DNA from: Candidatus Bathyarchaeota archaeon
GTDB taxonomy: Archaea; Thermoproteota; Bathyarchaeia; Hecatellales; Hecatellaceae
DNA: 12,313 nt
NCBI GenBank assembly: GCA_052246995.1
Contig: JBQPWD010000010.1
Coordinates: 1 to 12,313 of the forward strand
Reading direction: 5' to 3'
In this document: piece after piece, positions 389-12,313 of the stretch
How positions within the stretch are numbered: position 1 is the first letter of the stretch
How the letters are laid out: each line of letters starts with the position of its first letter
The notes under the pieces: generated by a model
Database searches by the model: none
Told to the model about the DNA's origin: nothing
The model's input: the letters and a program-made list of their open reading frames with translations, nothing else
Program-made: the position numbers and the translations under genes

Positions 389-1057
389 TTAAATGCTTAA
401 AATTATTTTAGTAACCTCTAAAAGGTTGTCTGTTCTGATTACAACATCTGCTACGTTTTTTATTTCCTCATCTTTTGGGTTTAATGCTATTCTAAATCCA
501 GCCTTGTTAAATATTTCAAGGTCATATTTGCTATCTCCAACAACTATAAACTTGGATAATGGTATGCCGCTTTTTTTTGAGATTTCCATTAAAATTTCCA
601 GCTTTTTTCCAGTTTTAACATGAACTTTTTGCTTACCAGTAAAATATCCTTCTTTGTCTAGTTCAAGTTCGTTGGCGTATACGTGTTCTATGCCAACGTC
701 TTTTGCAACCTTTTTAGCCAGTATGTCTAATCCGTAGGTTATCATTATGACTAGGTAGCCTTCATTTTTAAGTTTGGTGATGGCTTCCTTGGCGTTTTTC
801 ATAAGCGTGTAGCTGCTTAAAGCTTTCTCTACTTGCGTGATGTGTGGAAACCTGTTTTTTCCCCATATCTTTTTACCTTCCATCAGAAGTTCGTTAAATC
901 CTATTTCTCCATAATAGTATTTTTCAATAACTTTTTTTGTTTTCTCCCAATCTAGGTTGAAATGTCTACTTATTAACTCCCAGCAGCTTTCCTTAATTAG
1001 CGTACCGTCCATGTCAAAGACAACAACACTATATTTTTTATTCATCTCTTTTTCCAA
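389..1057 (-). CDS. HAD-superfamily subfamily IB phosphatase (phosphoserine phosphatase-like); true start may be the ATG at 1045
   Basis: Motif I FDMDGTL, motif II IMITYG (SerB has S-G-G here), motif III Lys (GKK), motif IV VGDSKYD, and the SerB-typical VYANEL...G.FTG segment. The substrate cannot be determined from sequence. Confidence 0.85.
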   Translation of the reverse strand: MEKEMNKKYSVVVFDMDGTLIKESCWELISRHFNLDWEKTKKVIEKYYYGEIGFNELLMEGKKIWGKNRFPHITQVEKALSSYTLMKNAKEAITKLKNEGYLVIMITYGLDILAKKVAKDVGIEHVYANELELDKEGYFTGKQKVHVKTGKKLEILMEISKKSGIPLSKFIVVGDSKYDLEIFNKAGFRIALNPKDEEIKNVADVVIRTDNLLEVTKIILSI

Positions 1058-1244
1058 CCGACAATTGTTAACCAGCTACCACGATTTTTATGCTAAACCG
1101 TGCAAAGGTTTAAGGAATTATTAAAGGATATTTTTACAAACTCTGATATTTATTTGTTTTTTATTTAAAAAAGAGTGGAAAAATTTTTATCTACAACTTC
1201 TCCGAAAAACTGAAAAAGTTAAGTTTAAGTGTTGAATCTTATTA

Positions 1245-1280
1245 GATAGCATGTCTTGAAAGGATAGCATGTCTTGAAAG
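1245..1280. repeat. Perfect 18-bp tandem duplication (GATAGCATGTCTTGAAAG x2)
   Basis: Copies at 1245-1262 and 1263-1280, in the divergent intergenic region, ending 32 bp before the TTG at 1313. Confidence 0.95.
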
Positions 1281-1312
1281 CTACCTAAAATAAAAAATGG
1301 AACTGTAACAAA

Positions 1313-2743
1313 TTGAGTCTAGTTAAAACTTACCACGAGGTTTTTGATGAAATAGCAATCCTCCGTAATGGCTTCATTATAATGGTTACTGATGAGGCTC
1401 ACTTTGACTCAATGATATTTTTAAATTCTCTTTTATCTGAGTATGCCAAGAAAAAACCGGTTAAGGTTGTTACCATGTATGATGTTTTGACAAGTTTTGG
1501 TCAAGTTAAACTTGATAAAATTAGTTCTTTAAGCGAACTTTCAATTTTTATAGGTCATGTTAGGGAAAATGTTAGGGAGGGTGTGATAATACATCACTAC
1601 TTTCCACATATTCTTGTGCAACATGGTGAGGTAAACACGTTAAAACTGGTAGAGCATTGGCTTACGGAAATTCGTGAAAAACCTTTGCTGGAATTTATAA
1701 CCCTCCCACAGAATACATTTCCAACCTTTGAGAAAACTCTGGATGTTACACTTCCAGGAGTTATTCGTTTAACAGTTAAAAAGGAAAATGAAAGCTATAC
1801 CCGAAGCTTCACCATCTATCGTGCATGTAAACCTGTTTATCATGGAACATCTTTTCCTTACCTTGTAGAAAACGGGAAACTTTTAATAAAATTTGGGAAA
1901 AAATTTATTGATAAGCTACCAATTACTGAAAGCGATAAAATAGAACAAGAAAAACACTACATGCTGGAAAACATAAAAAGGTTAAGGATAGTGTTAAGAA
2001 AACTTGACCCTAAACTTTTTACCCCTTCTGAGTATTTGATTGCAACACAGTTACACACCATGCCATTAATGGAAGTAAAAATGCTTTTTCCCGAATCTTT
2101 TGATGAAATATTAAATAGAATTGCCAGATGGGTTGTTGAAGGTATTGTTGAATTACAAGAGGAAAGTGAGGATATTATACGTGAAGAAAAAATACATCCT
2201 CCAACAAAACGCATTAAAATAGCGTTAAAGCTTCCAAACTGGCTTTTCCTTAAATTTGTTAAAAAACCACATAAAGTTCCACTGGAAAGTTTGCTAAGCT
2301 TAAGGAAAATTATTGAGACAACTTTGCAAATTTATCTTCCAAAAGAGGAAGAACCTTTACAAGCATTAAAATTCTGTGAGAAATTGTCTCATGAGCTTTC
2401 TGCCAGAAGAACCGCGATTTCTCATGCCCTTTCTCTTGGTGAGGATCCTAGGGGAAAGCTAAATTTAAGTTATTTGCCAAAGATAGTTTCTCTTACATTG
2501 GCATCAGGTTTTGGATTTCGTATGTGTGAAACCTCAAGAATTGCTGAAAACGTGTGGAAAGTTAAGGTTAAAGATTGTTTTATTTGTGAAGATGTAAAAT
2601 CAAGCGAACCTGTATGTCACATTGTAAGTGGAACTATTAACGGTGTTTTACCAGTAATGTTTAAAGAAAGTTTCTCATGTGAAGAGGTTGAGTGTAAAGC
2701 TATGGGACATCCTGTTTGTGCATTTATAGTTAGGAGAATGTAG
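1313..2743 (+). CDS. Multidomain sensor: degenerate KaiC/RecA-like N-terminal domain + probable winged HTH + C-terminal V4R domain
   Basis: C-terminal DCFICE...PVCH...G.I.G...CEEVECKAMGHPVCAF is the V4R Cys/Glu pattern. LPGVIRL...RSFTIYR...YHGTSFPYLVENGKLLI resembles the KaiC C-terminal strands (DGVI.L...R.L.I.K.R...H....PY.I...G), but there is no Walker A. The central FTPSEYLI...EILNRIARWVVEGIVEL looks like a wHTH. Confidence 0.75.
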   Translation: MSLVKTYHEVFDEIAILRNGFIIMVTDEAHFDSMIFLNSLLSEYAKKKPVKVVTMYDVLTSFGQVKLDKISSLSELSIFIGHVRENVREGVIIHHYFPHILVQHGEVNTLKLVEHWLTEIREKPLLEFITLPQNTFPTFEKTLDVTLPGVIRLTVKKENESYTRSFTIYRACKPVYHGTSFPYLVENGKLLIKFGKKFIDKLPITESDKIEQEKHYMLENIKRLRIVLRKLDPKLFTPSEYLIATQLHTMPLMEVKMLFPESFDEILNRIARWVVEGIVELQEESEDIIREEKIHPPTKRIKIALKLPNWLFLKFVKKPHKVPLESLLSLRKIIETTLQIYLPKEEEPLQALKFCEKLSHELSARRTAISHALSLGEDPRGKLNLSYLPKIVSLTLASGFGFRMCETSRIAENVWKVKVKDCFICEDVKSSEPVCHIVSGTINGVLPVMFKESFSCEEVECKAMGHPVCAFIVRRM

Positions 2744-4001
2744 ATTCATCAACAATCCATTCAGAGTTTTCAGCTATGTCAAATGCAACCTTATAGTACC
2801 TGTTTAGGTATGTTGGTATTGTCAACATTAAGATTTTAAGTGGTAAAAGTGATTGTAGTAGGGTTATTAAACTTTTAAGGTTCCTTTTCTCCATGACAAG
2901 TTTTCTTAGATTAAAAAGTCTTAGCACCTTTGCACAGAAGAGTAAGGCGTCAGAATCCATAAGCTTTGAACATGTTTTGGCTTTTGCAAGGTAGCTTGCA
3001 CCTGTAAGGTAGAAAATGTCTCCAACACTTATTGTATCATTTATCAAACCATTTTTTTCCACATTTTTAATTAATGTTGTCTCCTTGTTTACTATCTCAT
3101 CTATTGAAACTTTCCCCAGTTCTAATCCAAGCATTAAAGCCGAGTTTACTATGTCGTTTTCCAAGTCTTCTTTAAGGTCTACAACATCATCGTAGAATAG
3201 GGTTGACCTGAAAATTAAGTCTAAACTTTTACCGATAAGATTTATAGCTTTAACTTCATCGTAACCTAATTTCCCCAAAAATTTTTCTAAAAAGCAGAAA
3301 TCCATGTCAACCCATATTTTTCCTATTCCCTTACCTGATATTCTCCGAGAATAGTCTGCTAAAGTAAGGTTGTTGTATGCATATTTATCCCTTTTCTGGT
3401 AAAAGGATTCAAGTTGACCTTTAATACATTCTTCAACATCCCTAGCATATACGTTAAACATTTTAGGCTTACCGCATGTTGAAACTATGGTTTCATAGGT
3501 CCATGAAGCCATAACATGGGATGAGTTTTCAGCTTTACTAACCCAGTCACCGTTAAATTTAACATTAAACTTTCCAGTTGTTAGGGCAAGATTGTAGTTG
3601 TACATGGAGTTTATAGCATCTTTAAAACTGTGTAAAGTATCATTAACATTATCTAAAACTTTGCAGCTTGTACCCATAGCTGTTTTTGCAAATACTGCCA
3701 AGGCTATTGTTTTATCATCAGCAACATTGTAAAGTATCGGGTAGGAGCTTAATGCTCCAAGAAATGCTGCGTAAACGTAATGTTTTTCTTTCATAAGCTT
3801 ATGTTGTTTAAGACTTTCAGCGTTAAGGCAGTTTTCATCCTTTTCAAGTTCTCTAAGTTTTGCTTCAAACATTTTTATAACTGTTCTTGTTGTGTTTAAA
3901 ACCCTGTTAAAGTCTATTGAGGAGTATCTAGCCATATACTTTAAAATGAGAAGTGCTCCAAGCTTATAAAGAAGGTTTAACCCTTCTTTTTTGTTTCCCA
4001 T
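2730..4001 (-). CDS. Class I isoprenoid synthase-fold protein (terpene synthase / polyprenyl synthase / ComQ-like prenyltransferase), divergent
   Basis: First Asp-rich motif variant LDNVND (DNVND at 3639-3653), then GQLES (GQxxD-like), Y..RI.GK (KT-like) and a second motif YDDVVDLKED (DDVVD at 3177-3191), in the order expected for this all-helical fold. SD-like GGGGAG lies upstream of the ATG. Confidence 0.75.
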   Translation of the reverse strand: MGNKKEGLNLLYKLGALLILKYMARYSSIDFNRVLNTTRTVIKMFEAKLRELEKDENCLNAESLKQHKLMKEKHYVYAAFLGALSSYPILYNVADDKTIALAVFAKTAMGTSCKVLDNVNDTLHSFKDAINSMYNYNLALTTGKFNVKFNGDWVSKAENSSHVMASWTYETIVSTCGKPKMFNVYARDVEECIKGQLESFYQKRDKYAYNNLTLADYSRRISGKGIGKIWVDMDFCFLEKFLGKLGYDEVKAINLIGKSLDLIFRSTLFYDDVVDLKEDLENDIVNSALMLGLELGKVSIDEIVNKETTLIKNVEKNGLINDTISVGDIFYLTGASYLAKAKTCSKLMDSDALLFCAKVLRLFNLRKLVMEKRNLKSLITLLQSLLPLKILMLTIPTYLNRYYKVAFDIAENSEWIVDESTFS

Positions 4002-4163
4002 TTTTAAACTCCCCGCAACCTAAAAATCTAGTTTAGGTCATATAAAAGTTACTCAGCTAACCTTTTTAACTTTGAATTCTAGCAAGCTCAACTTCAAAAC
4101 TCCAAGGATGGTAGAACTTTTATAGTTAAATACTAGAATATTATTCTAAGAGGTTTGTGAACT
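4002..4163. promoter_or_regulatory. Divergent archaeal promoter region with TATA-like boxes on both strands and two 7-bp-arm inverted repeats
   Basis: Minus strand: TTTTATAT at about 4040-4047 and GGGGAG at 4009-4014. Plus strand: TTTTATAG at 4118-4125 and GAGGT at 4150-4154. Inverted repeats: ACCTAAA-N7-TTTAGGT (4018-4038) and TAGAATA-T-TATTCTA (4134-4148). Confidence 0.5.
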
Positions 4164-4874
4164 ATGAAATATGTCCCAACAGGAATTGAGGGTTTTGATG
4201 AACTTGTGGGTGGAGGTCTTCCTGAGGGAAGAGTAATAATTGTTATTGGGGGGCCTGGAACAGGTAAAACACTTTTTGGTATGCAATACCTTTATTATGG
4301 TGCAACAAAGTTTGGAGAGAAAGGCGTCTTTGTTTCTCTTGATGAACCAGCTGAAAAGCTTAAAAATAACATGGCTTCCTTTGGTTTTGACATTGACAAG
4401 CTTCAAAAAGAGGGGAAGATTTCAATTTTAGAAGTATCTCCAACCCAGTTTGTCTCAATTAAACCAAGTGGGCTTATACATCTTTTAAAGGATGCTGTTA
4501 AATCTTTCCCGGATATTAAAAGAATTGTGTTGGATCCTATAACAAGCATGGTTATCCAGGAGAAGGATATTTACCATAGGAGGCTTGAGGTTGTACGCTT
4601 GTTTAGCTTTTTAGCGGATACTGGATGTACAGCTGTTGTAACTTCGGAAAGTCGTTTTTCAATTCTTAGACGTAGATTTAACGTTGAAGAGTTTCTCTCT
4701 GATGGGGTTATTATTCTACATAAGTTTATTATTAAAGGTAGGGTTGCTCATGCGGTGCAGGTTGAAAAGATGCGTGGAGTTATTCATGATACACAGCTTC
4801 ACCCATACAGAATTTTAAAGAACAAGGGTATTACCGTCTATCCAAAGGAGTATGTTATAGAGCTTCAACAGTAG
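4164..4874 (+). CDS. Single-domain KaiC-like RecA-superfamily ATPase (COG0467 / KaiC-GvpD-RAD55 family)
   Basis: VPTGIEGFDELVGGGLPEGR start, Walker A GGPGTGKT (4248-4271), SLDEP catalytic acid, Walker B RIVLDP, TSE, VEEFLSDGVIIL, VEKMRG (Arg finger) and H...PY.I...GI.VYP. Confidence 0.92.
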   Translation: MKYVPTGIEGFDELVGGGLPEGRVIIVIGGPGTGKTLFGMQYLYYGATKFGEKGVFVSLDEPAEKLKNNMASFGFDIDKLQKEGKISILEVSPTQFVSIKPSGLIHLLKDAVKSFPDIKRIVLDPITSMVIQEKDIYHRRLEVVRLFSFLADTGCTAVVTSESRFSILRRRFNVEEFLSDGVIILHKFIIKGRVAHAVQVEKMRGVIHDTQLHPYRILKNKGITVYPKEYVIELQQ

Positions 4875-4892
4875 AATGTAAAGTGGGTTTTC

Positions 4893-7694
4893 ATGGGTAA
4901 AGAATGCTACTCTAAAACATGGTTTCTATGTTTAACCATAATTTTTCTTCTAATTTTTTCCTTAACATCCACTTTATCGTTTTCCCAGCAAACCGATGTT
5001 TACAGTTATGATGAAGCGTTGGAGATTATGGTTTCAAGTGGCGACATCTACGGTAGGCTTTCTTTTAACGGTTCTCTTCCAGCAAGCAAGTTTTTACTTG
5101 GTGTTGAAGGTTTAAAAGGTAAGATTTCAAAGGTTAATGTTTGGGTTGTTAATGGTTGTCAACCTTTAACATCTTCAAGGGTTGGAATTCCATCTTTACC
5201 TGAAGGTGTTATTTTAGAGGTTAAGTTTAAGGGTGAGGTTGACTGGAAACTGGCTAGAAATGTTGTTAAAAAGTTTGGTGATAAGTTTAATGTAAACTTT
5301 TTAAACCTTCCATCTTATGAGGACTATCTTAACATTGAGGAAGTAGATAAAGGTAGCCTTATTTTTTATGCAAAGTTAAATGACCTAGGATTATGCTTTA
5401 ACATTTTTAAAGACGAGTTTCTTCCAAGCTTAAACGTTTATGGAGGCTTTCTTTCCCTTCTTAAACCTGAAAACTATGTTAACTCTTCTTTTACAATGTT
5501 TTATGCAAAATTTAACATTGAGAAGGATTCATCTGTTGTAGAGTTTGTTCATCTTTCAAAATCTCCTGCTAAGGTTACTGGTGAAGGTTATTATGCTGTA
5601 AACGTTGAAGGTGTGTTTGGTCATAGTGGTAGTTTAACCCCATCCCGTTACGCTAAACAGTCAACAGTAAGGTTTCACCTTCCAGCCTTAACCGTTGTTA
5701 ATGCTTTAATACCCAACCTTGAGGTTGACTATGATGGTAAGCTTAGCGGTTTGCTTGAGAAAGGTAAAACTTATAGGAGTATAGAGGTTCAATATCTTCC
5801 TTTTACAGATTTTCCCCAGCCAAACCTTACCATTGTAAAGTTTACAAATACAACTACATGGTTAAGCGGTAAAAAAGTTAGAGTTAATATTCAAGTTTCT
5901 AACACTGGAAATGCTGCGGCAAAAAACATTCTGATAGATGATAGTTTAAGTTTTGAGGCTGTTAAGGATTATGCTTCTGTTGTTGAGGGTAAACCTGTTA
6001 AAAACGTGGATGTGCTTCCACCAAAATCGTCAGAATCCTTAACATACACCCTAGAAGTTAAGAAAACACCTACTAAACCTCAATCTTTAAAACTTCCGCC
6101 AACCTACATCCAGTATTCCGACGGGTCTGGGTTAAACATTTACAGAGTTTACTCTAACTCGTTTGTAGTAGGTTTAGGCTGTCCCGTTCCATCCCTATTA
6201 TCCTCGGTTTGGGCTGGTAGCTTACATGGAGAGCCTTTAAAGCAGGAGGTTGCAACAGTTTACCTTTTAAATCTTGGTGAACTTCCAGCTTCAAACGTTG
6301 AAGTATCCTTTAAAAACGAGGTAGGTGAAGAGGTAAGAAAGGTTTTAGAGATTCCACCTTTAAACGAGGTTTACTTAAACTTTGACTTTATCTCTTCTGG
6401 ATTAAATTTAACCTACAACCTTAACAGTTTAACTGTTATTAAATATGAGGGTAAAGTTGGCATGGACAGGTATACTTTAAACGTTGAACCCTCAACTTAC
6501 ACGATGAGATTTTCTAAAGTAAGGTTTATAGATTTTACTTTTCTAAGAAGCCTTAAATCTCCATATACAGTTATAGGTGGATTGGTTAATGTTAACGAAA
6601 ACTTGGCTGTTAAAGGTGTTTTTAAACCTGTTTCAGCCTTGCTGTTAAACGTACTGCCTGAGAATGTTAGCTATGTTGGGGGCGACTTCTTAGTAAAAAA
6701 TGAGACGTTGTCGGTAGTATTTAAATCCTTAGAAATTTCTCAGGATGGAAACCTTCTCTTTAACTATCTTTTAACTTTAAACAATGCTGGAAGCTTTACG
6801 CTTCCACCACCACTACTTATTTTTCACTCTTCAAAACCGTTTGTAGACTATAGAGTTTATCTTGGAGATCCCTCTATGCTTAAGTGTTTAAATGTTCGTT
6901 TTGTTAAAACCTCAAGTCTTAGGGTGTTTGCTGGTGAGCCGTTAACGGTTACTTTTAAGATTCAAAATAGAGAACCTAAACCACTATTAAATGTTAAAGT
7001 TTCTGATAGTAAACCTGAACAGTTTAAGCTTGTTTCAGGCAGTTTAGAGTTTACAATTCCATCTGTTGATGCAGGTCAAGAGTTGTCAAGGTCGTACCAG
7101 TTGTCAGCAGATGTTCTTGGAAGATACACTCTTCCATCTGCAAGCTTAACCTTTACTTATGATGGTGTTGAGCTTAATTCAGCATCAAACCAAGTTTCAG
7201 GTTTAGCTGTTATTCCAAAACTTGTTATTACTAAAAGTGTGGATAAAACTGAGCTTAACATTGGAGATACGTTAAACATTCAGATAACTGTTCAAAACCC
7301 GACAAACTTAACATTTTACGGTGTATCTATCTTTGACCCTGTAATTACAGGTTTCACCATCAAGTCTGGAAGTAACATGCTTAAAGGTTTAACAATTAAC
7401 CCAGGTGAGTCTAAAGTTCTTGTTTACCAAGTTGAGGCTAAAATGGAGGGTGATTTTCTTCTTTTACCTGCCTATGTAACCTACAATTATGGTGGTGAGG
7501 AGGTTAAGGTTGATTCTCAAATATACACTTTAAAGGTTGGACCTTCAATGATGCCTCTTCTAGTAGGCTCGGTTGTTGCTGTTGTTGCTTTAGCTATTTT
7601 TGTTTCCTACTTCTTCCTTCTACGTGAAAGGAGAGGTGTAAAAAAGGTTAGCAAAAAAGAGGTTGAGGAGCTTCCTGAAGAAGAATTTATATAG
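4893..7694 (+). CDS. Large membrane-anchored cell-surface (glyco)protein with several Ig-like DUF11/BatD/CARDB-type repeats
   Basis: N-terminal signal peptide (KTWFLCLTIIFLLIFSL...), C-terminal TM helix (LLVGSVVAVVALAIFVSYFFLL) and a charged cytoplasmic tail. Repeated L.I.K......G..h.V.I.V.N.......V.I.D and Y.L......G.h.LP.A.hTY motifs. Eight N-X-S/T sequons counted. Confidence 0.8.
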   Translation: MGKECYSKTWFLCLTIIFLLIFSLTSTLSFSQQTDVYSYDEALEIMVSSGDIYGRLSFNGSLPASKFLLGVEGLKGKISKVNVWVVNGCQPLTSSRVGIPSLPEGVILEVKFKGEVDWKLARNVVKKFGDKFNVNFLNLPSYEDYLNIEEVDKGSLIFYAKLNDLGLCFNIFKDEFLPSLNVYGGFLSLLKPENYVNSSFTMFYAKFNIEKDSSVVEFVHLSKSPAKVTGEGYYAVNVEGVFGHSGSLTPSRYAKQSTVRFHLPALTVVNALIPNLEVDYDGKLSGLLEKGKTYRSIEVQYLPFTDFPQPNLTIVKFTNTTTWLSGKKVRVNIQVSNTGNAAAKNILIDDSLSFEAVKDYASVVEGKPVKNVDVLPPKSSESLTYTLEVKKTPTKPQSLKLPPTYIQYSDGSGLNIYRVYSNSFVVGLGCPVPSLLSSVWAGSLHGEPLKQEVATVYLLNLGELPASNVEVSFKNEVGEEVRKVLEIPPLNEVYLNFDFISSGLNLTYNLNSLTVIKYEGKVGMDRYTLNVEPSTYTMRFSKVRFIDFTFLRSLKSPYTVIGGLVNVNENLAVKGVFKPVSALLLNVLPENVSYVGGDFLVKNETLSVVFKSLEISQDGNLLFNYLLTLNNAGSFTLPPPLLIFHSSKPFVDYRVYLGDPSMLKCLNVRFVKTSSLRVFAGEPLTVTFKIQNREPKPLLNVKVSDSKPEQFKLVSGSLEFTIPSVDAGQELSRSYQLSADVLGRYTLPSASLTFTYDGVELNSASNQVSGLAVIPKLVITKSVDKTELNIGDTLNIQITVQNPTNLTFYGVSIFDPVITGFTIKSGSNMLKGLTINPGESKVLVYQVEAKMEGDFLLLPAYVTYNYGGEEVKVDSQIYTLKVGPSMMPLLVGSVVAVVALAIFVSYFFLLRERRGVKKVSKKEVEELPEEEFI

Positions 7695-7703
7695 TAGTTG
7701 TTG

Positions 7704-7723
7704 TTTGTCTTTTTTTTGACAAA
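7704..7723 (+). terminator. Possible archaeal oligo-T terminator after the surface-protein gene
   Basis: A T8 run (7710-7717) about 15 nt after the stop codon, flanked by a short inverted repeat TTTGTC/GACAAA. Confidence 0.35.
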
Positions 7724-7776
7724 AGTTTCTTATACTGGATAGTAAAAAAAAATAAAGTGTTTGAGGCTAGTTAAAG

Positions 7777-8778
7777 TTGACAGAAGCAGAATTAAAAAGC
7801 GAACGTTTAAAAGTTTATAGAGAAAATGATGTTCAAATATTGCTTTCAAAGTTTATTAGTAGGGATATAACTGAGCTACGTCCAACATTCGACCCTGTTT
7901 ATGGTTACCGTTATCTTGTTGTTGAAAATCTTGCAAGAAAAAACCCTGAAGAGGTTAAAGAGCTTGTTAATAAACTTCGTAAACTTAACATTTTGAAGGG
8001 TAAGCTTTACGATAAGTTTCTTATCTGCCCCTCATGTGGTTCACGTTATGTTTCAACATCATACCTTTGCCCACATTGTCAATCCATAAACATTGAAAGA
8101 CAAGTTTTGATTGAACATCTTAAATGTGGAAATTTTAACCTTGAAAGTTACTTTGGAAGGGCGGGGGATAAACTTGTTTGTCCAAAGTGTGGTCTTAAAC
8201 TTGAAAAAATTAATGTAGATTACCGTATAGTTGGAGTTTGGTTTGTGTGTGGTGATTGTGGAAGAAGGTTTGCTACGACAAATCCAACTCACCGTTGCTA
8301 TAGTTGTGGTGCGTTGTTTAACGTTGATGGGGCAAAGTTTGAGAACATTTACATTTTTACTTTGGATGAAAGAGTTGCGGAGGAGATTAAGGGTGGAATG
8401 CTGATTTTATCCTCGATAGGAGGTTTTCTTGAAAAGTTAGGTTTTAAAATTGAATCTCCAGGTTTCTTAAGGGGAGAATCTGGTGTTTCTCATAAGTTTG
8501 ATGTTGTTGCAAGAAAAGACAACATTAGTGTTCCGCTTGTTTTAGATATCGTGGTTTCGGAAAGCTCGGTTACAGAGTTTCCGCTTTTAGGTTTATATGC
8601 AAAGGTGTTGGATGTTAGTAAAGCTTTACCGTTTCTGGTGGTTGTTCCTGCAATAAGTGAGGAGGGAAGAAAGCTTGCCTCCACATATAAAATAAACCTT
8701 ATTGAAGCTAAAGACCCTCAGGAAATAGTTGAGAAGCTTAATGCTAAAGTTTCTAAGGAGTTTAAAAAGTTGTCTTAA
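7777..8778 (+). CDS. TackOD1 (thaumarchaeal output domain 1) multi-zinc-finger protein fused to a C-terminal Mrr/PD-(D/E)xK-like domain
   Basis: Five CxxC (CPSC, CPHC, CPKC, CGDC, CYSC) plus one HxxC (HLKC) after a wHTH-like N-terminus match the TackOD1 signature. The C-terminal GF.IE....L.GESGVSHKFDVVA...A.TY.I.LIE is typical of archaeal Mrr-like REase-fold domains. Confidence 0.8.
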   Translation: MTEAELKSERLKVYRENDVQILLSKFISRDITELRPTFDPVYGYRYLVVENLARKNPEEVKELVNKLRKLNILKGKLYDKFLICPSCGSRYVSTSYLCPHCQSINIERQVLIEHLKCGNFNLESYFGRAGDKLVCPKCGLKLEKINVDYRIVGVWFVCGDCGRRFATTNPTHRCYSCGALFNVDGAKFENIYIFTLDERVAEEIKGGMLILSSIGGFLEKLGFKIESPGFLRGESGVSHKFDVVARKDNISVPLVLDIVVSESSVTEFPLLGLYAKVLDVSKALPFLVVVPAISEEGRKLASTYKINLIEAKDPQEIVEKLNAKVSKEFKKLS

Positions 8779-8800
8779 ATTGCGGTTTTAAAGTTAGGGG

Positions 8801-10519
8801 TTGTTTATTGCTTTGACTTCACCCATTTATGTGGAGGAGCATGTAGGTAGAGTTTTCGGCGAAGTTAAGGTTGACGAGTTTAGCTTTTTTATGGTTCCAT
8901 TAAAAAACATCTTACTTAAAAATTTTGATATTGTTGTTTTGGAGGATCCTGTTTTTAAAGGTTTATCTCCTATTCTTGCAAGAATTGTTGACCTTTCAAA
9001 TCGTGAGGAAGTTACAACTTCAGAAAAGGCTACACGTACAATTGCAAAATGTAGGGTTATAGGTAGGGTTGATTTAAGGTTTCCTGAAGAGGCAGTTCCA
9101 GTAGAAAAGTTAAATTATCCTGTGGAGCCTGGAAGCTATGTTTACCTTGTTAAACATGATTTTATTCAGAATCTTTTAGAAAGAGGTTTTAAAGGTTACC
9201 CTATTAAAAGAAAAATTTTTCTAGGTTTTCTTTCTTCACCTTTAACAGGTGAGGATGGTTCTTTACATAAGCTTAAATTTTATCTTAGTCTTGAAGATTT
9301 ATCAAGGCAGCATACAGCGTTAATATCTATGACTGGTTTCGGTAAAACCCATGTTGCAACCATCCTTGTTGAGGAGCTTGCTGGAAAACATGGTTATCCT
9401 GTTTTTATTGTTGATGTTTACAACGAGTTTCTTGGTGTTAATAAGCTTAAACGGTTAAACTTGTTTGAAAGCTTATCTACGGATATTCTTAAAGATTACA
9501 AGTTTAATTTTAAGGTTAAAGTTTACACTTTAAACCCTAAAAATACTTTAGAACTTTTAAGCAAGGCTGGTATTCCAAACTATGAAGTTGAAGGTTTAAC
9601 TGTTCCTAGTAATTTGCTTGTTGACGGGAATGAGGTTGCACACCTTCTAGCTGAAGATGTTGAAGAATTTAGCATAATAGTAAATATAGCAAACCATATA
9701 AACTCTGTCCATACAGATTTTGTTAAAAATTGTAAAGCTTCATTCTTTAGTCTGGTTGTGGCTGAGCTTGCACGTATAGTTGAAAGCGCCGACTCCATAG
9801 ATGTTTATACTGGAATTGAGAGGAGGGCTGCTGCAAATCTGCTTGGAAAAGCGTGTATAGCGTGTAACAACCTTATTTTGTTAAGTAGGGAGGATGAGGA
9901 TTTCCTTAAAAATTACAGGATTACTGTTGATGATGAGTTTGAAAGGGGTATAGGTAGCGGGTATCTTTTAAGAATCGGGTTTTTCCATGAAAAGCTTAAG
10001 CCTCCCGCTGGAAACTTTAAACCTGAGCTTATGGTTAAAGAAAATCAGGTTACAATTTTTGATGTTTCAGGTTTAACTGAAAATCTTAAAACACGCATAG
10101 TTTCATTCTGCCTTTACAAGCTTTATAAGGCTAGAGTTAAAAGTGAAATTCCAAGTTTTCTGTTGATTGTTGAGGATGCTGAAACGTTTACATCAAAGTT
10201 TAATGTTAAACCTTCAAACCTAATCCTTAAAAGAATTGCTGTTGATGGTGTAAAGCTTGGGTTAACACTTCTCCTTTTAATTCAGTATCCCTCAGCAGTA
10301 GATGAAAAGGTAATGTCGCAGGTTGGCATAAGAATTGTTGGAAAACTCTTAGATAAGGAAGATTTAGAATATCTCAAACACCAATTTAAAGAGGAAACAT
10401 CTGAAATACCTAAACTTAGAAAAGGTGAATGGTTGATTGAGGGGTTACAAGACTACTTGTTTGAGCAGCCTGTAAAGGTAACAGTAAGAGAAACATTAAC
10501 AGAAAAACTAAAACCATGA
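8801..10519 (+). CDS. HerA/FtsK-superfamily (DUF87) ATPase with N-terminal HAS-barrel and degenerate catalytic motifs
   Basis: HAS-barrel-like N-terminus (VGRVFG...ILARI...AKCRVIG...PVEPGSYVY), RQHTALISMTGFGKT Walker A (SMTGFGKT at 9326-9349), IVDVYNEF (canonically D.HGEY), LIVEDAE Walker B, RIAVDGVKLG, QYPSAVD..VMSQ and LRKGEWLI. Confidence 0.85.
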   Translation: MFIALTSPIYVEEHVGRVFGEVKVDEFSFFMVPLKNILLKNFDIVVLEDPVFKGLSPILARIVDLSNREEVTTSEKATRTIAKCRVIGRVDLRFPEEAVPVEKLNYPVEPGSYVYLVKHDFIQNLLERGFKGYPIKRKIFLGFLSSPLTGEDGSLHKLKFYLSLEDLSRQHTALISMTGFGKTHVATILVEELAGKHGYPVFIVDVYNEFLGVNKLKRLNLFESLSTDILKDYKFNFKVKVYTLNPKNTLELLSKAGIPNYEVEGLTVPSNLLVDGNEVAHLLAEDVEEFSIIVNIANHINSVHTDFVKNCKASFFSLVVAELARIVESADSIDVYTGIERRAAANLLGKACIACNNLILLSREDEDFLKNYRITVDDEFERGIGSGYLLRIGFFHEKLKPPAGNFKPELMVKENQVTIFDVSGLTENLKTRIVSFCLYKLYKARVKSEIPSFLLIVEDAETFTSKFNVKPSNLILKRIAVDGVKLGLTLLLLIQYPSAVDEKVMSQVGIRIVGKLLDKEDLEYLKHQFKEETSEIPKLRKGEWLIEGLQDYLFEQPVKVTVRETLTEKLKP

Positions 10520-10683
10520 AGTTTTCTACTGAAAAATAAAAATTTAAAGTTTAACTAGTATTTTAACCTTTTAACCTCTTCAACATATTTTGACTTATCC
10601 CCCCAGCTTAGGAGAGTGTTTGGGCAATTTTACATTCTACCCTCATTTTTCCACACAAATTTTTCGGTAATTTTTAGGGTTAT

Positions 10684-10946
10684 CTAGTTATGACACGTGT
10701 TTTTACTGGGATAATATGTGCCACCAACACTTATATTGATGAGGCTTTCAAGCAATAGCTTCCTCTTCTCTGGATCTAGGTATAATATCGACCTAGAAAG
10801 CTCCAATAAGTTGAAAGCTTGTTCCCATACTTCTCCGAGATACTCAGCAATTGTTCGTCCGCAAGTATATTTGCAAGACGCTTTACAACTCCGTCCTCGT
10901 TAAAGTAGTTATATTTATCATCGTAGCCACTTGAGCTTGAACTCAT
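10684..10946 (-). pseudogene. Frameshifted remnant of an unidentified gene
   Basis: A 56-aa frame at 10946-10776 (MSSSSSGYDDKYNYFNEDGVVKRLANILA...) overlaps another stop-free frame reading GRTIAEYLGEVWEQAFNLLELSRSILYLDPEKRKLLLESLINISVGG... to TAG at 10684. Together they read like one helical protein broken near 10860. Confidence 0.35.
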
Positions 10947-11179
10947 GCGTAAGTCTCCTCAGCTTCCATTTCTGTTAGACCAGTCTCCTTTATTAGCCTC
11001 TCTTTCACCTGTTGTTTTTCAACCTTCCATAAATCATTTAACCTCTTTAGAAAAAGCAAAACAAGAATAAACTTATAATCCACCGCTGTTCTTATTAAAT
11101 CAGCAGCTCTGTCAACAAGAGAATTCAATTCCTCACGAGTAACCTTCTTTGGAAACAATGACCTTTGAGCCATCTTCAT
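10943..11179 (-). pseudogene. hsdM: Truncated type I restriction-modification methyltransferase (HsdM N-terminal fragment); start probably the ATG at 11173
   Basis: LVDRAADLIRTAVDYKFILVLLFLKRLND matches the HsdM_N motif (AAD.LR....Y..IL.LLFLKR..D). It stops after fewer than 80 codons, and no MTase motifs (DP.CG.G, NPPF/W) occur downstream in any frame. GAGG precedes the second ATG at SD spacing. Confidence 0.8.
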
Positions 11180-11380
11180 CCTCTAAGCTATTTTTTATTT
11201 AACTTAATTAAAGGATATAGAAATTTAGTTTAACAAATTGTTAAGGCCTCTTAAGCAAGCGTTTTTACCCAACTTCACATCTTCTCAAACTTTGTTAATT
11301 CATAGCTGTGAAAAGAGCGCCAAATTATTGAGGCTTCTTTAGCCTTTTAATTTCCTTTTATTGGATTTTTGTTTTGTAAC

Positions 11381-11461
11381 TTACGACATATAGTTACGAG
11401 TTACGAGCTGAGTTTTACGACATGTTACGACCTCGTAAATCTCGTATTTACGACTCGTAAA
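11381..11461. repeat. Array of TTACGA/TCGTAA hexamers in direct and inverted orientation
   Basis: TTACGA at 11381, 11394, 11401, 11415, 11425 and 11448. TCGTAA at 11433 and 11455, TCGTAT at 11442. These form TTACGA-CC-TCGTAA and TTTACGA-C-TCGTAAA inverted pairs. Confidence 0.9.
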
Positions 11462-11478
11462 ATTTTACAAGCCGAGTT

Positions 11479-11609
11479 TTACCATGGTATTTACCATGGT
11501 AAATTAAAAGTATCAAGAAATGATGCAGGTAGGTCGGGGTTTTTAGGCTTAGTGGTAAAAATTTTATGGTAAATTACCATGGTAAAAATTCATGGTAAAA
11601 ATGGTAAAA
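11479..11609. repeat. Array of TTACCATGGTAA palindromes and TGGTAAA half-sites
   Basis: TTACCATGGTAT (11479-11490), a perfect 16-bp ATTTACCATGGTAAAT (11489-11504), TTACCATGGTAA (11574-11585), and half-sites TGGTAAA at 11553, 11567, 11593 and 11602. Confidence 0.9.
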
Positions 11610-11659
11610 CTTAAAAACTTAAAACCTTGGTGTGTAAGAATACATGTGGGTAATGTAAA

Positions 11660-11995
11660 GTGAAGGAGGAAGAGGTAAAAGAAATAGTGGAAAAGTTGAA
11701 GGCTGAGGGGAAAAGCAGGGATGACATAATCAGGGAGCTTGTCAACAGAAAGGTGAGGGTGGAAGTCATCTGTAAGCTACTCAAGTGTAGCGGTAAGGAA
11801 GTGGGGCGTATCGCAAGGGAGATAAGAGAGACAGAGGTCCTGGAGGAGGTTCCGAAAAGCGACGTAGAGCTAGGCTTAGCTTTGAGGAAGGCTAAGCCTC
11901 TTGTGGAAAAGGATATTGAGCGCTTAAGGGATGAACTTGGAGACAATTTCTGGTGGATTCCGAGGGGTGGAACAAACCCAAGGGGTTTGGCTTAA
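11660..11995 (+). CDS. Small protein with a probable N-terminal helix-turn-helix; possibly the 5' part of a frameshifted gene of about 166 aa
   Basis: SRDDIIRELVNRKVRVEVICKLLKCSGKEVGRIARE fits an HTH pattern. The sequence is purine-rich, coding-like and much higher in GC than the upstream genes. Confidence 0.6.
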   Translation: MKEEEVKEIVEKLKAEGKSRDDIIRELVNRKVRVEVICKLLKCSGKEVGRIAREIRETEVLEEVPKSDVELGLALRKAKPLVEKDIERLRDELGDNFWWIPRGGTNPRGLA

Positions 11996-12159
11996 CAGGT
12001 ATGGCAGTCAAGGAGCTTTTAAAAGCAGCGAAGGAGAAGGAAAACAATGTGGTCGTGAAGTACACTCCCATAGATGTTGAGATGGTTGCGGCGGAGTATT
12101 GGGAGAGATGGTGCCGCCTGGTGAAGGAGCTGACGCTCAAGCCCTATAAGCCTAAATAA
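11953..12159 (+). CDS. Hypothetical protein: either the -1-frame continuation of 11660..11995 or a separate 52-aa gene from the ATG at 12001
   Basis: The frame is open from 11935 and has the same codon style as the upstream ORF. The ATG at 12001 lies 5 nt after the upstream TAA. Confidence 0.45.
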   Translation: MDSEGWNKPKGFGLTGMAVKELLKAAKEKENNVVVKYTPIDVEMVAAEYWERWCRLVKELTLKPYKPK

Positions 12160-12202
12160 AATCGGTGATCTTTCTCGCGGCAAGGACCTCTCTAACCGTT
12201 GT

Positions 12203-12230
12203 CGGATAGTTAACATTTTATAACTATCCG
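12203..12230. repeat. 28-bp inverted repeat CGGATAGTTA-ACATTTTA-TAACTATCCG (operator, hairpin or recombinase site)
   Basis: Perfect 10-bp arms at 12203-12212 and 12221-12230 with an 8-bp spacer. Confidence 0.85.
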
Positions 12231-12313
12231 TTCCACCTTGGCTATGGCCTCATGGATGGCTTTCGGGGGCAACGGTAAAGCACCCCACATTGGAAGTTTC
12301 ATGGCTATATTCC

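Follow-up and report, generated by a model that had tools for sequence, protein, structure and literature searches.

This study concerns the first 12,313 nucleotides (nt) of contig C10 (GenBank JBQPWD010000010.1) of a Candidatus Bathyarchaeota archaeon, whose genome comprises 1.53 Mb in 17 contigs (GC approximately 35%); this entire stretch of DNA is referred to as the window. Two of its genes, both annotated publicly as "hypothetical protein", form a strongly conserved pair and the constant element of the locus: one encodes an enzyme candidate of 423 amino acids (aa) with a predicted class I terpenoid-synthase fold, the other a 476-aa sensor candidate in which a predicted, inactivated KaiC fold is joined to a V4R domain. 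We read the pair—with a probability of roughly 0.55—as a lineage-specific terpenoid module, composed of an ionizing class I/IB-like synthase and a dedicated V4R sensor of a hydrophobic pathway compound. The genes, hereafter the synthase and the V4R-fusion gene, are convergent, and their 3′ ends overlap by 14 nt:

1313–2743 (+): sensor/regulator candidate, 476 aa; inactivated KaiC fold, helical middle, and V4R (structure model, Foldseek, Pfam V4R)
2730–4001 (−): enzyme candidate, 423 aa; class I terpenoid-synthase fold (structure model, Foldseek, conserved motifs)

Conservation of the gene pair

Of the 401 Bathyarchaeia genomes sampled, 33 yielded a member of the 423-aa family and 30 a member of the V4R-fusion family. 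Both genes are present in 29 genomes, the synthase only in four (G004, G078, G148, and G202), the V4R fusion only in one (G139), and neither in 367. Among the genomes that carry both, 26 of 29, covering eight GTDB families, have the pair on one contig within two genes and nearly always in convergent orientation, which bears out the linkage between synthase and V4R gene that the original prediction on this DNA had proposed as a check. In two further genomes the pair is divided by contig ends: the synthase gene begins at a contig end in G001 and G086, and the V4R-fusion gene of G001 also runs to a contig end. Sorted by GTDB family, the 423-aa family occurs in 7 of 13 genomes of f1, to which the window belongs, in 14 of 16 of f16, and in 5 of 6 of f18; no member turned up in the large families f8 (0/104) and f26 (0/59). 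The pair persists through different local rearrangements, and it is on this persistence that the argument for pairing rests. In the literature searched, neither the main text of the preprint discussed below, the only one found on archaeal terpene synthases, nor a 2018 census of archaeal two-component systems describes a synthase/V4R-fusion pair.

Two loci feature a different layout. L067 (G229:C13) is rearranged: the V4R-fusion gene adjoins a 66-aa fragment of the synthase that contains stop codons, and an intact copy of the synthase is found approximately 2 kb off on the opposite strand. In L073 (G139:C18:1–6000), the V4R-fusion gene is followed by a membrane protein gene and then by a GGR-family gene. 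A synthase was not detected in this genome, which is 83% complete, and the locus is either a natural "receptor without synthase" or an assembly gap.

The 423-aa enzyme candidate

The sole Pfam match of the 423-aa protein is polyprenyl_synt (PF00348) with 15.4 bits, compared with a cut-off of 27 bits, and PDB searches with the sequence and with its profile returned nothing meaningful. The family comprises 12 clusters at 90% identity among 5.8 billion and 71 representatives among 1.84 billion proteins; the profile search of the latter set reached no other family and hence offers no sequence bridge to class IB or other synthases. In the source annotation, family members are listed as "hypothetical protein".

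A structure model of the protein, built from a 19-sequence alignment, is all helical with a pLDDT of 88.7 and a pTM of 0.90. The PDB matches of this model listed by Foldseek are all class I terpene synthases or prenyltransferases with a probability of 1.00; the best E-value is 2.6e-4, three matches have E ≤ 0.001, and the TM-score reaches up to 0.64 on the target. Among the matches listed are two class IB entries, 5yo8_B and 6loo_A—the latter with TM-scores of 0.51/0.60. As judged by the model, the 423-aa protein has the fold of the class I terpenoid-synthase/prenyltransferase α-fold superfamily. The class I isoprenoid-synthase fold named in the original prediction is recovered, and the enzyme is not an ordinary geranylgeranyl diphosphate (GGPP) synthase, given its occurrence in 33 of 401 genomes and the one standard polyprenyl synthase encoded elsewhere in its own genome (249.9 bits).

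The protein carries two acidic motifs: motif 1, K114-x-L-D117-N118-x-N-D121, and motif 2, Y270-D271-D272-x-x-D275-x-x-x-D279; in addition, there is a basic pair, R366 and K367. Conservation was assessed over the window protein and 47 family proteins of at least 370 aa, out of 80 family proteins (n = 48). K114, D117, N118, D121, D271, D272, D275, D279, and R366 are conserved in 47 to 48 of these; D117, D121, D272, D279, and R366 are present in all 48, and D271 and D275 in 47. Approximately 20 polar residues are near-invariant across the 48 members. The two motifs are located on separate helices of the model, with D117 and D121 at the C-terminal end of helix 96–122 and D271, D272, D275, and D279 at the end of helix 247–274 and beyond. 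A complex prediction of the 476-aa and 423-aa proteins gave a score of 0.00, which is no evidence in either direction.

Comparison with class IB and other terpenoid enzymes

The class IB "large-terpene" synthases (BalTS, BsuTS/YtpB; PF10776/DUF2600; PDB 5yo8 and 6loo) likewise consist of a single α domain and have no canonical class I sequence signature. PMC5939612 describes DYLDNLxD and DY(F,L,W)IDxxED as their signature motifs, in which none of the six Asp residues is dispensable. Set against this description, the KxLDNxND and DDVxDxxxD of the 423-aa family agree at five of six Asp positions, and the spacing is identical. In motif 1, the L, D, N, and final D are common to both and the Y is absent; in motif 2, the D-x3-D-x3-D spacing is common, with the three Asp residues at positions 1, 5, and 9 present in 47 to 48 of 48 members, the Y is replaced by D, and the E is kept in just 18 of 48. 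Ordinary class I synthases show this triad spacing as well, in their NSE/DTE motif, an equation that is our own. The proteins differ in length, with 423 aa here versus 346 to 347 in the class IB target chains, and in origin: class IB is bacterial, whereas the 423-aa family is archaeal and paired with a V4R sensor gene. We know of no pairing with a V4R sensor for class IB synthases. In an Atlas search, PF10776—the tetraprenyl-β-curcumene synthase family—was the only named family among 30 feature neighbors (6 hits, score 0.90), which serves as a lead only. Because the PF10776 model yields no match, the 423-aa protein is kept outside this family and filed as "class I fold, class IB-like motifs".

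Functional archaeal terpene synthases are reported in the main text of a preprint (bioRxiv 10.1101/2024.01.29.577750), which predicts them to be widespread, Thermoproteota included. As described there, these enzymes are likewise single α-domain proteins of archaea that are missed by Pfam and InterPro; the validated one modeled in detail features a canonical DDXXD at residue 67, whereas the 423-aa family has DNxND. Bathyarchaeia, class IB, and gene context have no occurrence in the main text of this preprint.

The trans-polyprenyl diphosphate synthases (PF00348, including Bacillus ComQ) have the class I fold and a DDxxD (residues 271–275) in common with the 423-aa protein; the latter, however, remains below the family threshold, is patchily distributed, and occurs next to a separate standard enzyme in the genome. 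The analogy to ComQ put forward in the original prediction has no backing, with the 423-aa protein falling short of the polyprenyl synthase family threshold.

The 476-aa V4R-fusion protein

Pfam detects only V4R (PF02830) in the 476-aa protein, at residues 415–474 with 58.6 bits compared with a cut-off of 31 bits, and V4R was found in 18 of 18 family members. The AlphaFold model, based on an 18-sequence alignment (pLDDT 90.0), features a KaiC fold (residues ~1–225), a helical middle (~226–320), and a Cys-rich V4R domain (~324–476). For residues ~1–225, Foldseek returned the CI domain of KaiC (4tlc) with an E-value of 6.3e-9 and a TM-score of 0.71 on the target, and in addition the archaeal KaiC-like protein PH0186 (2zts). 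The Walker A motif GxxxxGK[ST] occurs in 0 of 23 orthologues, and the model points to an inactivated KaiC-fold domain that has lost its P-loop. The protein and 18 members of its family give no Pfam KaiC match, and the family profile shows no similarity to that of a KaiC alignment; owing to this lack of profile similarity, "pseudo-KaiC" is a fold-level statement only. Residues ~226–300 form three helices and a strand in the model, the sole hint of a winged helix-turn-helix (wHTH).

Searched against the PDB, the V4R profile matches MJ1460 (E 3.4e-7), the phenol sensor MopR (E 0.005), and an archaeal TRAPPC3 (E 0.22). Five cysteines of the domain are invariant: C422, C425, C435, C461, and C469. 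The best NCBIfam match, covering residues 411–473, is MsvR with 38.4 bits and an E-value of 1.1e-9, which is below the equivalog cut-off.

MopR, DmpR, and XylR consist of a V4R-type sensor domain, an AAA+ ATPase, and an HTH, and MsvR consists of an HTH and V4R. The Cys cluster of the MopR type holds a structural zinc, and MsvR senses redox through its cysteines. A Cys cluster common to MetOD1, PoxR, and MopR is described in the part of the J Bacteriol 2018 article that deals with MetOD1. The 476-aa protein resembles these sensors by its Cys-containing V4R and by having a P-loop-fold domain joined to it in one cytoplasmic protein. Compared with the MopR-type sensors, however, its domain order is reversed, the P-loop domain has a KaiC/RecA fold instead of AAA+ and carries no Walker A, and the HTH is unconfirmed.

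Makarova, Galperin, and Koonin reportedly portrayed archaeal KaiC-like ATPases, in mBio in 2017, as "signaling hubs" with inactivated KaiC (iKaiC) domains. The 476-aa protein resembles such iKaiC signaling proteins in that an inactivated KaiC fold is fused to a sensor domain and an intact KaiC gene is close by in 9 of 32 genomes, and TackOD1 also occurs in the window; it differs from them in that no sequence-profile link exists between its N-domain and KaiC. Mention of iKaiC is also found in a passage of PMC5847659. The literature searched contains no linkage of iKaiC or KaiC-like proteins to a terpene-synthase-fold enzyme, and the combination of "KaiC-like" and "V4R" led only to a 2018 census of archaeal two-component systems, which does not describe the 476-aa architecture.

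Flanking genes in the window

The pair is flanked by a HAD phosphatase gene and a KaiC gene. Both outer gene pairs are divergent, with gaps of 255 nt (HAD/V4R-fusion) and 162 nt (synthase/KaiC). Coordinates and strands of the four genes are as originally predicted; the domain calls made with them hold for HAD, V4R, the KaiC fold, the synthase fold, and the intact KaiC, and the wHTH is left without confirmation. The remaining features of this part of the window are as follows:

389–1057 (−): HAD-IB phosphatase, phosphoserine-phosphatase-like paralogue (Pfam HAD 67.2 bits; TIGR01488 90.5 bits)
1058–1312: divergent intergenic region HAD/V4R-fusion, with a perfect 18-nt tandem repeat at 1245–1280
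4002–4163: divergent intergenic region synthase/KaiC
4164–4874 (+): intact single-domain KaiC-like ATPase, first of a same-strand run (PF06745 219.5 bits)
4893–7694 (+): DUF11/TRAP-beta-repeat surface protein, 933 aa, with N- and C-terminal hydrophobic segments
7777–8778 (+): TackOD1 zinc-ribbon protein
8801–10519 (+): HerA-like ATPase

The HAD protein carries the motifs DMDGT and GDSKYD. It reaches 121 bits with the SerB model TIGR00338 (cut-off 144.15) and 90.5 bits with the HAD-IB model TIGR01488 (cut-off 45). The true SerB (242.5 bits) is encoded on contig C2, which makes the window HAD a spare paralogue; a second phosphoserine-phosphatase-like paralogue is found elsewhere in the genome. 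An orthologue occupies the same position in five of the seven f1 genomes.

The KaiC protein has an intact Walker A motif (GGPGTGKT) and is one of eight KaiC-family members above cut-off in the genome. Its gene and those of the DUF11 protein, TackOD1, and HerA follow each other on the same strand with gaps of 18, 82, and 22 nt—a run that is kept in G001. The DUF11, TackOD1, and HerA genes are probably KaiC's own module, and the run from 4164 to 10519 may constitute a KaiC-controlled surface or pilus-related module. By heading a same-strand run of its own, KaiC has partners more obvious than the synthase; an interaction with the dead KaiC domain of the 476-aa protein is possible. In G002 the pair adjoins type IV pilus genes, and in G387 it adjoins both type IV pilus genes and TackOD1. 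In the latter genome, which belongs to f11, a PAS and DUF835 protein (L066:5684–6850) is encoded between the synthase gene and a KaiC–TackOD1–type IV pilus gene set, a signaling-type neighbor.

The 18-nt unit is perfectly duplicated in tandem and lies 33 nt upstream of the start codon of the V4R-fusion gene. It was considered as a conserved operator and rejected, as it has no counterpart in the same-genus relative G001; it probably arose by recent duplication at this site. The region 4002–4163 yielded no conserved element, and Rfam and tRNA scans of the window gave no matches.

The end of the window, 10520–12313, is a stretch without long open reading frames (ORFs). It contains a 78-aa ORF at 10943–11179 (−), whose sole match is the N-terminal domain of the type I restriction methylase HsdM (PF12161, 28.7 bits) and which resembles a gene remnant, and a 111-aa ORF at 11660–11995 (+) with a weak, sub-threshold match to a VapB-type antitoxin/ribbon-helix-helix family (PF02697, 24.2 bits; cut-off 27.9). 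The contigs of two sequencing runs omit 201 nt between 11402 and 11604.

Neighbors of the pair in related genomes

The neighbor counts cover ORFs no more than two ORFs away from the pair, in 32 genomes from eight families, and contig ends limit many of these counts:

HAD phosphatase: 16/32 genomes, four of eight families; HAD-IB in 5 (all f1), HAD-IA in 11 (f16, f14, and one f18)
KaiC: 9/32 genomes, four of eight families; 6/7 in f1, further in f11, f30, and f34; 0/20 in f16 and f18
GGR-family flavoprotein: 9/32 genomes; f16 and f18, usually between the pair
228-aa polytopic membrane protein: 4/32 genomes; f18
UbiA-family prenyltransferase: 3/32 genomes; f11, f20, and f30

HAD and KaiC neighbors are frequent but dispensable. 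The original prediction had expected both to accompany the pair: this was found for HAD genes of two subfamilies in half of the genomes, and KaiC neighbors the pair in just 9 of 32 and in not one of the 20 f16 and f18 genomes. Isoprenoid enzymes recur around the pair in five of the eight families, and the isoprenoid reading gains independent support from these GGR- and UbiA-family neighbors in other lineages. The assignment of the GGR-family gene is based on TIGR02032 with 175.9 bits, compared with a cut-off of 158.8 bits.

The membrane protein of f18 is conserved with 228 to 230 aa, has no Pfam family, and is encoded between the V4R-fusion and synthase genes. Its genes are located at:

L055:6351–7037
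L060:7978–8664
L068:6532–7221
L073:1636–2328

One of these proteins shows a sub-threshold lycopene-cyclase hint (TIGR03462, E 0.035), which is a lead only.

Expression and habitat

Sequencing runs that carry a hot-spring-metagenome label contain 56 to 82% of the sequence words sampled from the window. In one RNA-Seq library, contigs that are 95 to 99% identical to the window cover 2849–3525 of the synthase gene, part of the V4R-fusion gene, 4225–4898 (KaiC), and downstream genes. No contig of this library lies over the HAD gene region, though contigs cannot show absence. The library is compatible with transcription of the synthase, V4R-fusion, and KaiC genes in a close relative, as weak evidence, with carry-over of DNA being possible.

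Proposed function of the pair

From fold, motifs, conservation, and gene linkage, we infer a substrate class, ligand sensing, and regulation as follows. The 423-aa protein would be a soluble class I-fold enzyme, in which D117/D121 and D271/D275/D279 are spaced like the Mg2+/diphosphate motifs of ionizing synthases, most like those of class IB, and it would turn a prenyl diphosphate into a hydrophobic terpenoid. Depending on the lineage, GGR-family reductases, UbiA, the polytopic membrane protein, or HAD may modify this terpenoid or feed the pathway. The 476-aa protein would act as a cytoplasmic sensor: its dead KaiC fold may serve oligomerization or docking, its helical middle might bind DNA, and its V4R domain may form a pocket of the Zn/Cys type, like the small-hydrophobic-molecule pockets of MopR/DmpR-type regulators. 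It would sense an intermediate or product of the pathway and adjust the expression or activity of the module.

Several observations weigh against this assignment. Concerning the enzyme, the 423-aa protein is recognized by no sequence model: the PF00348 matches are weak and occur in 4 of 19 family members, and the PF10776 model matches 0 of 19 members at E ≤ 1 and nothing in the window's own genome at E ≤ 10, with the control matched in B. subtilis. The Foldseek E-values are modest, and a fold match cannot tell terpene synthases from chain-elongating prenyltransferases. Relative to the motif description in PMC5939612, 47 of 48 members of the family have a Lys where class IB motif 1 starts with Asp. 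Concerning the sensor, the KaiC-like nature of the N-domain is a matter of predicted fold alone, with hhalign of the 476-aa family against a 10-sequence KaiC alignment giving a probability of 0.4 and an E-value of 0.15. The five invariant V4R cysteines could form a redox sensor as in MsvR instead of a ligand pocket. For the wHTH, no Pfam match was found in 18 members at E ≤ 1, a PDB profile search of the middle region returned nothing relevant, and an Atlas search with residues 204–300 gave a best score of 0.77 and nothing usable; with the wHTH not confirmed, DNA binding is unsupported. Concerning the locus, f1—the family of the window itself—has no GGR or UbiA neighbor, and the isoprenoid context comes from relatives. 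The synthase and V4R-fusion genes are not adjacent in G296, G139 has the V4R gene without a synthase, and G078, G148, and G202 feature HAD-IA–(GGR)–synthase without a V4R gene. The latter three genomes indicate that the enzyme can exist in the absence of the sensor, which is what a regulatory role of the sensor would predict. Finally, relatives are not independent observations, and the pairing counts overstate independence.

Alternative explanations

The original prediction had interpreted the four genes as a quorum-like circuit: the synthase makes an isoprenoid, HAD converts it into a diffusible alcohol, V4R senses the latter, and the KaiC ATPase receives the signal by way of the dead KaiC domain. 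The conserved pairing of a synthase with a receptor-like protein agrees with such a circuit, as do the HADs of two subfamilies that neighbor the pair in 16 of 32 genomes, from four of the eight families, KaiC at a distance of no more than two genes in 9 of 32 genomes, likewise from four families, and the status of the window HAD as a spare paralogue instead of the genome's SerB. It is nevertheless quite improbable. The D-x3-D-x3-D triad is that of ionizing synthases, which release diphosphate themselves, so that no phosphatase is needed for an unphosphorylated product, and the locus bears no sign of export, secretion, diffusion, or density dependence. None of the 20 genomes of f16 and f18 has KaiC near the pair, and in the window and G001 KaiC heads the DUF11–TackOD1–HerA run; in f16, the HAD-IA gene adjoins a class II aminoacyl-tRNA-synthetase-like gene, and its linkage may partly be inherited gene order. 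Inherited order might also be invoked for the synthase/V4R adjacency itself, without any functional link, given that all carriers belong to one class and many of them to two families (14 genomes of f16 and 7 of f1), which are not independent. This we consider very improbable, since the pair persists amid rearranged surroundings—GGR, UbiA, the membrane protein, HAD-IA, HAD-IB, and KaiC—and the presence and absence of both genes track each other across the 401 genomes (29, 4, 1, and 367).

Two further explanations leave the pair intact and change the role of one partner. The 476-aa protein may be an MsvR-type redox or metal sensor that uses the V4R cysteines to control a membrane or antioxidant isoprenoid pathway under oxidative stress, and not in response to a product. 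Such a role, which we regard as unlikely, would fit the invariance of the five cysteines, MsvR as the best NCBIfam match for residues 411–473 (below cut-off), and the GGR-family flavoproteins in the cluster in 9 of 32 genomes; the MopR-type phenol sensors, however, have the same Cys pattern, the V4R profile matches MopR at an E-value of 0.005, and a pathway-specific sensor is more typically linked tightly to a single enzyme family than a general redox regulator is. The 423-aa protein, in turn, may be either a helical protein without catalytic activity or a divergent prenyltransferase of the chain-elongating or head-to-head type, with another role for the pair. Farnesyl diphosphate, GGPP, and heptaprenyl synthases score equal to terpene synthases in Foldseek, D271-D272-x-x-D275 is also a canonical DDxxD, and weak PF00348 matches exist in 4 of 19 members. 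We deem this rather improbable: all 48 members have D279 eight residues after D271, a spacing that suits the NSE/DTE or class IB triad and does not suit the second Asp-rich motif found in elongating synthases; a DD doublet is missing from motif 1, and the genome already has a standard polyprenyl synthase; in addition, the approximately 20 near-invariant polar residues of the 48 members, as seen in the alignment, argue for catalysis.

Implications for Bathyarchaeia

Bathyarchaeia are abundant uncultured archaea of sediments and hot springs, and their secondary metabolism is essentially unknown. Functional archaeal terpene synthases were reported just recently, in the main text of the above preprint (bioRxiv 10.1101/2024.01.29.577750). 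A more far-reaching version of the terpenoid module is a ligand/receptor circuit, in which a self-made terpenoid of an unrecognized class IB-like branch is received by V4R, and the dead KaiC domain plugs into KaiC signaling that controls surface or pilus genes (DUF11, TackOD1, HerA, and type IV pilus). We regard this version as a long shot; if true, it would represent a terpenoid-based cell–cell or membrane-state signaling circuit in Bathyarchaeia. The 423-aa family itself is small, has a clear active-site signature, and is accompanied by a dedicated sensor with an unusual architecture. Were the enzyme active, it would extend class IB-like chemistry to archaea and would provide an enzyme/sensor pair of natural origin whose V4R ligand is directly identifiable—a rare situation for V4R proteins and for inactivated KaiC proteins. 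An active enzyme could also be a source of the unassigned isoprenoid hydrocarbons in sediments.

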